Sequence record: NC_008720.1
Reading direction: 5' to 3' (one strand)
DNA length: 64,000 nt
Source of the DNA: Escherichia phage N4
Under the pieces are notes generated by a model. That model saw only the letters and a list, made by a program, of their open reading frames with translations, searched no databases and was not told the DNA's origin. Below are positions 26,716-26,882 of this stretch, one piece after another. Position numbers and translations under genes: made by a program. The number at the start of each line of letters is the position of its first letter. Positions within the stretch are counted from its first letter, which is position 1.

Positions 26716-26781
26716 TCCGGTGTAGGTACTAGTGTCGTGCACGGCATGAGTGTTCTGGTTCGAGTCCAGACGCCGGAACCA
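26716..26781 (+). other. tRNA-like 3' fragment (T-arm, acceptor 3' strand, encoded CCA) with no foldable 5' cloverleaf; possible tRNA remnant
   Basis: TCTGG-TTCGAGT-CCAGA, CGCCGGA, A, CCA at 26754-26781; a complementary TCCGGTG sits at 26716-26722, but the 31 nt between cannot form D and anticodon arms. Confidence 0.4.
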
Positions 26782-26789
26782 ATTCGTAA

Positions 26790-26882
26790 GAACTCTTATT
26801 TTGGTTACCGCAAAAGAAGTGAAAAATGTTGTGGAAAACTACTTCCCAATTAGGTTCGAATCCTAAACCAGAGTAAGAGTTC
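26790..26882 (+). repeat. 17-bp inverted repeat (15 Watson-Crick plus 2 T-G pairs) enclosing a T-arm-like hairpin
   Basis: GAACTCTTATTTTGGTT (26790-26806) pairs with AACCAGAGTAAGAGTTC (26866-26882). The two mismatches are G-U wobbles only on the plus-strand transcript. Spacer contains TTAGG-TTCGAAT-CCTAA (26850-26866). Confidence 0.7.

Follow-up and report, generated by a model that had tools for sequence, protein, structure and literature searches.

Two probable non-decoding tRNA-like RNAs between the tRNA genes of Escherichia phage N4

What are the tRNA-like sequences that lie between the transfer RNA (tRNA) genes of Escherichia phage N4: the remains of broken genes, or RNAs in their own right? 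The question concerns positions 26716-26882 of a 64,000-nucleotide (nt) stretch of sequence record NC_008720.1, which was analysed as a whole and is hereafter called the window. A preliminary description had recognised orphan 3' halves of tRNAs at these positions, one of them with an encoded CCA, and had offered two readings, namely that tRNA genes have decayed or been rearranged here, or that structures resembling tRNAs have been kept to serve some other purpose. N4, an N4-type podovirus of E. coli (Schitoviridae, Enquatrovirus), is a classical model phage, yet the non-coding block of ~1.3 kilobases (kb) that contains these sequences is essentially unannotated. Two adjacent plus-strand elements were identified here, E1 (26716-26781) and E2 (26782-26893), both within the 353 nt that separate tRNA-Thr from tRNA-Pro. 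We assign a probability of about 0.55 to the reading that E1 and E2 are distinct and conserved small RNAs under selection for their structure, each imitating parts of a tRNA without being able to decode.

The T-loop motif GGTTCRANTCC occurs six times in the window, always on the plus strand and always between 26348 and 26963, compared with 0.14 expected copies, and a count of six was reached in 0/100 shuffles. Four of the copies belong to tRNA-Asn, tRNA-Ser, tRNA-Thr and tRNA-Pro, and the remaining two are those of E1 and E2. The concern that the T-loop matches might be due to chance can therefore be set aside.

Fold and conservation of E1 and E2

Both elements are built on the same plan. A terminal helix is followed by nine unpaired nucleotides at the position of the D-arm, one hairpin at the position of the anticodon arm, a linker of 4-6 nt and a T-arm. 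The latter stacks without a gap on the 3' strand of the helix, and the whole is a three-armed, D-arm-less molecule. The terminal helix distinguishes the two: in E1 it is a normal acceptor stem of 7 base pairs (bp) ending in A73-CCA, whereas in E2 it is a double-stranded handle without a free acceptor end.

The 66-nt element E1 was delineated by its sequence, its minimum free energy (MFE) fold (z = -2.2), the mitochondrial mode of ARAGORN (-mt) and covariation. The preliminary description had correctly located its T-arm (TCTGG-TTCGAGT-CCAGA, 26754-26770, with a 5-bp stem and the loop UUCGAGU), the 7-bp acceptor pairing between 26716-26722 and 26771-26777 (one U.G, U1:A72), the discriminator A73 (26778) and the encoded CCA (26779-26781). 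It erred, however, in stating that no anticodon stem can be drawn. Within the 31-nt interval, 26732-26736 pairs with 26743-26747 to form a 5-bp anticodon-like stem, which ARAGORN -mt also detects and which covaries among relatives. The stem closes a self-complementary 6-nt loop, GUGCAC (26737-26742), is preceded by the unpaired 9-nt D-replacement loop UAGGUACUA (26723-26731), and is joined to the T-arm by a 6-nt linker.

E1 possesses the 3' part of a tRNA, namely the 7-bp acceptor stem, the 5-bp T-stem, a T-loop of the form UUCRANY, the discriminator and CCA. It does not form a four-arm cloverleaf with a 7-nt anticodon loop, as the D-arm is replaced by nine unpaired nucleotides and the loop is only 6 nt long. 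ARAGORN in mitochondrial mode reported 26716-26781 as 'D-loop mtRNA-?(Ala|Cys)(gc)', with 66 bases and a two-base anticodon; the plan of a tRNA with a D-replacement loop is present and its pairs covary, without a 7-nt loop holding a three-base anticodon. The refuting case named in the preliminary description, a complete non-canonical tRNA that had escaped folding by hand, thus applies only by half: a D-arm-less fold exists, but the loop has 6 nt, the 'anticodon' has two bases, and the Rfam tRNA model gives no match. Default ARAGORN called neither E1 nor E2. In a 261-nt search, neither element matched the Rfam tRNA model RF00005 even at E<=10, and the best match within the tRNA clan was tRNA-Sec (16 bits, E = 1.2). 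No Rfam family matched 26640-26900 credibly, the S4-Clostridia leader reaching 18 bits against a threshold of 37.5.

E2 begins at the base directly after the CCA of E1 and is a long-stem tRNA-like RNA of ~110 nt, delineated by its MFE fold (-39 kcal/mol, z = -6.9, far stabler than shuffles) and by alignment covariation. Its T-arm (TTAGG-TTCGAAT-CCTAA, 26850-26866) lies inside a long wobble-containing hairpin, as described previously, and is continuous with the 3' strand of the terminal helix. This helix had been given as 17 bp and actually comprises 23-25 bp (26782-26806 / 26866-26890), closing a three-way junction. The junction contains the 9-nt strand ACCGCAAAA (26807-26815) and an inner hairpin, whose stem (26816-26821 / 26840-26845) carries the invariant bulge AAAAAUGUU (26822-26830) and is connected to the T-arm by the linker CCAA. 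No CCA follows the terminal helix, and the T-arm is the sole canonical tRNA 3' part of the element. With nine nucleotides in the place of a D-arm and a bulged hairpin without an anticodon loop, E2 does not form a cloverleaf.

The conservation of E2 was analysed in an alignment of 11 sequences from four clades: Enquatrovirus, Gamaleyavirus/Moonfish, Humphriesvirinae (Pylas, SP-058, SP-076) and the T4-like Tegunavirus. In 16/33 pairs both bases have changed with pairing kept, a level of covariation that no shuffle reached, and 92.7% of the cells were paired compared with 39-53% in slid controls. No variation was seen in the junction strand, the AAAAAUGUU bulge, the AAACUACU strand or the T-stem, and the outer stem is free to covary. 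Given that the pairs include 28 G.U and only 5 A.C combinations, the molecule under selection is, as judged from the aligned sequences, the plus-strand RNA. Matches to E2 were found in 29 phage records, and it was annotated in 0/29. The homologues occur in G7C and Moonfish (Gamaleyavirus-like), in Pylas, KpCHEMY26, FSL SP-058 and SP-076 (Humphriesvirinae), and in the T4-like Yersinia phages TG1 and phiR1-RT, where they occupy an unannotated gap of the tRNA region. The fold has been kept between podoviruses of two Schitoviridae subfamilies and T4-like myoviruses at ~83% identity. A metagenome scan with the E2 core returned one contig, which was already in the set. E2 is a bona fide structured RNA family, unannotated in any record and without an Rfam match.

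The E1-containing block gave BLAST matches in 89 phage records, 60 of them with at least 80% query coverage, and E1 ranges over Enquatrovirus, Gamaleyavirus, Kaypoctavirus and other Klebsiella N4-like phages. A few of the records annotate it, those of SPSP, Jura and AL25 as 'tRNA-Undet(nnn)' and that of KP8 as 'tRNA-OTHER'. Eight distinct sequences with a mean identity of 94% could be aligned; scans of IMG/VR contributed a few E1 sequences and only two new ones of E2. The eight versions vary almost only in the helices, where pairing is kept, and their loops and linkers are invariant. Paired cells amounted to 97.6%, against 30-43% with the partner slid. Compensatory changes were seen in 4/21 pairs, two in the anticodon-like stem (U-A to C-G and C-G to U-A, in either direction) and two in the T-stem (in KP8, U-A to G-C and C-G to U-A). 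At least two RNA families whose folds are supported by covariation are thus present in the block, and one of them is common to podoviruses and T4-like myoviruses. Modelling E1 and E2, e.g., as new Rfam families, would stop their being mis-called as pseudo-tRNAs or small 'hypothetical proteins'.

The origin of E1 can be approached through an uncultured phage contig of ~100 kb with 33 tRNAs. Its tRNA-Gln(CUG) shares 24/26 nt with the T-arm and acceptor 3' strand of E1, and the 5' acceptor strands also agree (UCCGGUG in E1 vs UCCGAUG). Most likely, to judge from these similarities, E1 descends from a tRNA gene that was remodelled and then kept in its new shape. A coding function was considered for two open reading frames (ORFs) that overlap the elements, 26695-26853 (plus strand, 52 amino acids (aa)) and 26611-26742 (minus strand, 43 aa), and was rejected because E1 and E2 are not adjacent in PBM-3, G7C and TG1, so that the frame is not conserved, and because the substitutions track the helices.

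The palindromic loop of E1 was examined separately. The window contains 8 GTGCAC sites compared with 10 expected, giving no signal of enrichment or of restriction-site avoidance. In TG1, immediately 5' of the E2 homologue, lies a perfect hairpin, GAUUAG-UGCA-CUAAUC (L004 1961-1976), centred on GUGCAC, the same hexamer as the invariant loop of E1. This may be a coincidence or a functional link; a palindromic loop could permit kissing-loop dimers.

Alternative explanations and a proposed role

If E1 and E2 were decaying or rearranged tRNA pseudogenes, they would be 3' halves left after loss of the 5' part and carried passively. The closeness of the T-arm, acceptor strand and CCA of E1 to phage tRNA-Gln(CUG), the rejection of both elements by the Rfam tRNA model and default ARAGORN, and the presence of other aberrant tRNA genes in relatives all favour this view, as does Moonfish, in which unrelated sequence stands in place of the 5' two-thirds of E1, demonstrating that the locus does rearrange. 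The partner 5' strands are, however, present and covarying, and the elements are therefore not the orphan halves they had been taken for. Furthermore, the fold of E2 has persisted across two podovirus subfamilies and T4-like myoviruses despite the divergence given above. Since the helices of both elements are kept by compensatory changes (16/33 in E2 and 4/21 in E1) and their single-stranded parts are invariant, the alignments indicate selection on the RNA fold rather than decay, which makes pseudogenes improbable. Of the two readings originally offered, it is retention for another purpose that agrees with the compensated helices and invariant loops. A working D-arm-less tRNA, charged and decoding, e.g., tRNA-Cys(GCA), is very unlikely to be the function retained by E1. 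Its acceptor stem, T-arm and CCA are intact, and the Klebsiella-phage copies combine a 5-bp stem with a 7-nt loop, GUGCACA, that contains U33 and GCA, so that relaxed ARAGORN calls the KP8 copy tRNA-Cys(gca). This longer loop is nevertheless found in the Klebsiella-phage copies only; the window and every E. coli-phage copy have a 6-nt loop, which leaves a two-base 'anticodon'. E1 also lacks a D-arm, has C at position 37 and A73 as its discriminator, and is not matched by the Rfam tRNA model. The E. coli cysteinyl-tRNA synthetase needs U73, and no bacterial EF-Tu or ribosome is known to use D-arm-less tRNAs.

The main rival, which we still consider unlikely, is that the elements are cis-acting punctuation for processing or stability only. 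The E1 minihelix and the long helices of E2 and of two neighbouring hairpins, H0 and H3, would recruit ribonuclease (RNase) P, E or III, or block 3' exonucleases, so that the four tRNAs mature, and the excised pieces would be by-products. Such a function fits the positions of the long-stem elements, which start 0-3 nt after an encoded CCA (26547/26549, 26781/26782 and 26977/26980), and the CCA|AUU junction is found again in relatives. With 18-25 bp, and a single mismatch conserved 5-6 bp away from the base, the helices have the size of RNase III substrates, and the recurrence of the same outer stem around different interiors in relatives suggests that the stem, not the cargo, may matter. This explanation is weakened by the E2 interior (junction strand, AAAAAUGUU and AAACUACU), which is invariant across phage families while the outer stem covaries, the opposite of what a barrier predicts. 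It is also weakened by TG1 and Pylas, where E2 occurs without a preceding CCA end, and tRNA-Asn, tRNA-Ser and tRNA-Thr are spaced by only 4-5 nt without any such element. Selection could alternatively act on the DNA, with the elements being mobile or recombination modules such as miniature inverted-repeat elements or cassettes shuffled by homing endonucleases. There has indeed been exchange between unrelated phage families, with E1a, the element directly 5' of E1, in Kuravirus and Klebsiella siphophages and E2 in Tegunavirus; the same terminal repeats surround different interiors in KP8, PBM-3 and phi1; and a gene for an HNH homing endonuclease lies beside the region in G7C, and SegB is part of the tRNA cluster of T4. 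An inverted repeat of DNA would not, however, account for arms that covary with G.U tolerated and A.C not (28 vs 5), a signature specific to the RNA strand. All of the elements are oriented as the tRNAs are, and no transposase or target-site duplication was seen. Mobility of a module is compatible with an RNA function and no substitute for it, and as an explanation of its own it appears still less probable than decay.

Apart from the observations in favour of pseudogenes and punctuation, further points weigh against E1 and E2 being structure-selected tRNA mimics. The evidence for selection on the fold of E1 is real but modest because its alignment is shallow, and 38/500 shuffles reach its compensatory-pair count. 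The variant in Jura has a C.A mismatch, and an optional outer extension of the E1 hairpin (26727-26730 / 26749-26752) is lost in two variants. With no partner D-loop in E1, the tRNA 'elbow' that is contacted by the RNase P S-domain is incomplete. A literature search on the small RNAs and transcriptome of N4 returned nothing relevant for the region, and the RNA species and ends given below are predicted ones; a search on tRNA-like RNAs of N4-like phages likewise returned nothing relevant. The decoy function proposed below is speculative, drawing solely on shape and genomic neighbourhood.

If E1 and E2 are tRNA mimics, their maturation can be outlined from what is known of tRNA processing. The whole block would be transcribed as one precursor, and host RNase P would cut 5' of every acceptor/T-arm minihelix, in the case of E1 at 26715|26716. 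RNase P of E. coli cleaves hairpins that consist of the acceptor stem, T-stem and T-loop alone, using the 12-bp stack as a ruler and pairing with RCCA (PMC11143913). E1 has the corresponding features, i.e., a 7 + 5 bp stack, the loop UUCGAGU, A73-CCA, and a leader ...AAUUAAU with U at -1. We infer from established RNase P biology that E1 is a competent substrate; with these features and its leader being single-stranded, it would be expected to be cut at 26715|26716 and matured at CCA|AUU. Endo- and exonucleolytic 3' maturation at CCA|AUU would free the 3' end of E1 and create the 5' end of E2, and the RNase P cut at tRNA-Pro would set the 3' limit of E2. The predicted products are a 66-nt CCA-ended RNA and an RNA of ~110 nt, the ends of which would be sealed in a helix long enough for RNase III.

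Our best guess at a role, a speculative and tentative one, is that E1 and E2 act in trans as tRNA-shaped ligands. They may be decoys, or may compete for host proteins that recognise the body of a tRNA, its T-arm elbow or its CCA end, with tRNA-targeting immune nucleases and tRNA-processing or tRNA-modifying enzymes as candidate targets. Phage tRNA loci are now regarded as counter-defence against tRNA-cleaving immunity (PMC10264068, PMC11555353, PMC13056530), which makes non-decoding tRNA mimics obvious candidates for RNA decoys. The proposed role would, speculatively, fit this view as well as the anti-defence gene in the neighbourhood. A broader and rather doubtful extension is that a whole battery of tRNA mimics that do not decode, comprising E1, E2 and the 'tRNA-???' genes with truncated anticodons in relatives, is encoded by N4-type phages and, by way of shared modules, by some T4-like, Kuravirus and Klebsiella phages. 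The tRNA enzymes of the host would mature these RNAs, which would then inhibit tRNA-directed immune nucleases or other tRNA-binding host factors, or serve as decoys that such nucleases cannot cleave. If so, the tRNA operon and the adjacent Tad2-like gene would form an RNA-and-protein anti-defence island. Both E1 and E2 are small and easily deleted or mutated, so the question is directly testable.

The surrounding RNA block

The non-coding block lies between a 144-aa ORF, which ends at 25959, and an ORF of the gp49/Sf6-66 family, which starts at 27479. On its plus strand it carries four genuine tRNAs and several long-stem hairpins, with an intrinsic terminator at its end. ARAGORN and Rfam agree on tRNA-Asn(GUU) (26298-26372), tRNA-Ser(UGA) (26378-26467), tRNA-Thr(UGU) (26472-26547) and tRNA-Pro(UGG) (26901-26977), which score 50-77 bits with RF00005 (gathering threshold 29 bits). 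The terminator (27424-27459, plus strand), a 12-bp GC-rich stem followed by a U-run, closes the RNA block; it also gave a weak Rfam match of the Phe_leader terminator-like type. Conserved ORFs are absent from the block, and no sigma-70-like promoters were found in the region.

Comparison with other phages showed that 26200-27400 is 99.3-99.6% identical in OLB145, 3HA13, PMBT57 and others, and that 26392-36684 is 100% identical to a 70,153-bp IMG/VR contig. The tRNA part of 26200-27400 matched 315 phage records, mostly at 90-99% identity, among them Tequatrovirus, Yersinia, Klebsiella, Salmonella and Vibrio phages. This distribution indicates that modules of tRNA clusters are swapped among unrelated phage families. 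Among 5,426 E. coli genomes a counterpart was found for tRNA-Pro only, and E1 and E2 are without a host homologue.

The element E1a (26650-26715, plus strand, 66 nt), identified by conservation and fold, consists of two hairpins. The first, AGUC-CAGA...UCUG-GACU (26650-26673), is followed by an A-rich linker, and the second, CCAGG-UGGAAUC-CCUGG (26691-26707), has the loop UGGAAUC. E1a is 88-95% conserved in N4-like phages, and further copies were located at L020 1011-1075, L021 1001-1065 and L022 1001-1062. Shigella phage pSb-1, Kuravirus XT32 and the Klebsiella siphophage VLCpiS10a carry E1a but not E1 next to it. The VLCpiS10a copy shows compensatory changes in the second stem, where the loop stays UGGAAKC. 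A search of Rfam gave no match to E1a. A hammerhead-like ribozyme and a promoter were considered and rejected, as the core motifs did not fit and neither an Rfam match nor a sigma-70-like promoter was found. A mini-ORF of nine codons (ATG...TAA, 26685-26714) overlaps the second hairpin; it is in frame in VLCpiS10a and lacks a Shine-Dalgarno sequence.

Two further long-stem hairpin RNAs were predicted on the plus strand. H0 (26549-26642, fold z = -6.5) starts 2 nt after the CCA of tRNA-Thr and was found only in close Enquatrovirus relatives; its 5 bp, a G.G mismatch and a further 17 bp close a branched interior. H3 (26980-27063, fold z = -5.0) starts 3 nt after the CCA of tRNA-Pro and has a 13-bp stem with two inner hairpins. 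Hairpin RNAs of 85-110 nt with terminal stems of 13-24 bp form a class whose members start 0-3 nt after an encoded CCA or after E1a. Their stems usually comprise 5-6 bp, one mismatch and then a long perfect stem of 12 or more bp, and copies were located in relatives (L018 543-630 and 1137-1215, L003 1163-1247, L019 526-607, L020 1072-1145). In KP8, PBM-3 and phi1 the outer stem known from the Pylas-type E2 surrounds interiors of quite another kind, and the outer stem AUCAAUGAGUAC...GUACUCUUUGAUAGU likewise encloses unrelated interiors in different phages.

In N4-like relatives, otherwise complete tRNA genes with aberrant anticodon arms were also observed, which ARAGORN reports as 'tRNA-???' with two-base anticodons (ca, ac). 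Such copies include KP8 L018 206-280, with a 6-bp stem and a 4-nt loop, and PBM-3 L003 2207-2282. Unusually long tRNA-Ile(AAU) calls were made as well, and further aberrant-tRNA loci lie at L011 1431-1509 and L003 2288-2366. Non-decoding tRNA bodies may be a recurring theme in the N4-like group. In G7C (L012 1120-1225; also in Moonfish, L011), a tRNA-like sequence of ~105 nt lies 3' of E2. A stem of the acceptor type (ACGGGG / CCCCGU) is present together with two T-arm motifs, GGGGUUCGAUUCCCU and GGUGGUUCGAUUCCAUC, and no tool calls the sequence a tRNA.

Two conserved non-coding segments were noted 3' of tRNA-Pro. The segment 27072-27173 has an 8-bp closing stem; Gamaleyavirus PBM-3 matches it at 100% identity and Klebsiella phage BaqKoxi at 91%, and 27286-27356 shows 82-84% identity across many N4-like phages. 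The first gene 3' of the block (27479-27850) encodes a Phage_gp49_66 family protein (PF13876, E = 9e-35), and the second (27850-28332) a protein with a Tad2-like Thoeris anti-defence domain (PF11195, E = 8e-24), which suggests that the RNA block adjoins an anti-defence region.

Comparison with known tRNA-like RNAs

The short D-arm-less form of E1 has counterparts outside phages. The metazoan mitochondrial tRNAs that lack a D-arm share with it the acceptor stem, a short D-replacement loop, an anticodon-type stem and the T-arm; E1 differs in being phage-borne, in its 6-nt self-complementary GUGCAC loop and in its encoded CCA, which fits bacterial usage. It also resembles the minimal minihelices of RNase P and the CCA enzyme, in which a 12-bp acceptor/T-arm stack with RCCA is enough for E. 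coli RNase P (PMC11143913). The cutting of tRNA-like pieces from longer transcripts by tRNA-processing enzymes is known elsewhere (PMC6152437). MascRNA and the Arabidopsis GUT15 tRNA-like RNA are such processed RNAs; the examples available for comparison are synthetic or eukaryotic, and the cleavage of E1 is a prediction.

Phage tRNAs with mutated anticodon loops evade tRNA-targeting defences, and loci encoding them have been proposed as counter-defence (PMC10264068, PMC11555353). They resemble E1 in belonging to a phage tRNA locus and in having an altered anticodon arm. Such tRNAs still decode, however, which E1 and E2 cannot do, so that protection by the latter would need a decoy or inhibitor role.

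For E2, the combination of a long terminal stem with a tRNA-like module including a T-arm recalls YrlA (RF02553), whose module, however, has the order T-arm, hairpin and then D-arm. Membership in the YrlA/Y RNA family was considered and rejected: the match reached 17.3 bits against a gathering threshold of 69 (E = 2), and its alignment is spurious, borrowing the D-arm of tRNA-Pro. E. coli is not known to have Ro, the partner protein of Y RNAs.

The closest parallel is provided by T4, the tRNA region of which yields the stable RNAs C and D, with roles unknown (PMC3014915, PMC9697503). They are encoded in the T4 tRNA cluster by rnaC ('species 1 RNA') and rnaD and, similar to E1 and E2, are non-decoding small RNAs among phage tRNA genes on the same strand. 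T4 rnaC was found in 740 records, often mis-annotated as hypothetical proteins or as tRNA-Met/tRNA-OTHER. As in E2, a canonical T-arm abuts the 3' strand of a terminal acceptor-like stem in rnaC, and features common to both are a hairpin 3-5 nt 5' of the T-arm, at least 20 bp of double-stranded RNA and an AAAAAU tract. In contrast to E2, rnaC has four arms, namely a 7-bp acceptor-like stem, a long hairpin in the D position, a hairpin with the loop CRUCAA, and the T-arm. E2 has three, its long helix is the terminal one, and it lacks both the D-position hairpin and the CRUCAA loop.

An alignment of eight rnaC homologues contained 23/44 compensatory pairs, and the covariance model R2 was built on these eight sequences, with E-values that are roughly calibrated. 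This model picked up N4 E2 only, at 18.2 bits (E = 0.027 under the rough calibration), with ordinary tRNAs at 9-14 bits and the other E2 homologues unmatched; the reverse search with an E2 model did not detect rnaC (E = 2.7). The lead for placing E2 in the rnaC family had been the string AAAAAU...AACUACUU...GGUUCGAAUCC. Its 'CUACUU' strand covaries freely in rnaC, and the match is therefore specific to the T4 version. TG1 carries an rnaC homologue (L004 3540-3683) and an E2 homologue (L004 2001-2078) at separate places, and rnaC and E2 are therefore not orthologues. E2 appears from these sequences to be of the same kind as T4 rnaC, with membership of its family not established. No similarity was found between E1 and rnaD.

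The kind of molecule, a tRNA-like stable RNA embedded in a tRNA cluster, is thus a known one; the three-arm architecture is new, and the distribution across phage families is notable. E1 and E2 would provide a second, independent example beside the T4 RNAs C and D, and if the decoy battery exists, it would hint at a function for these two RNAs, which have been an enigma for 50 years.

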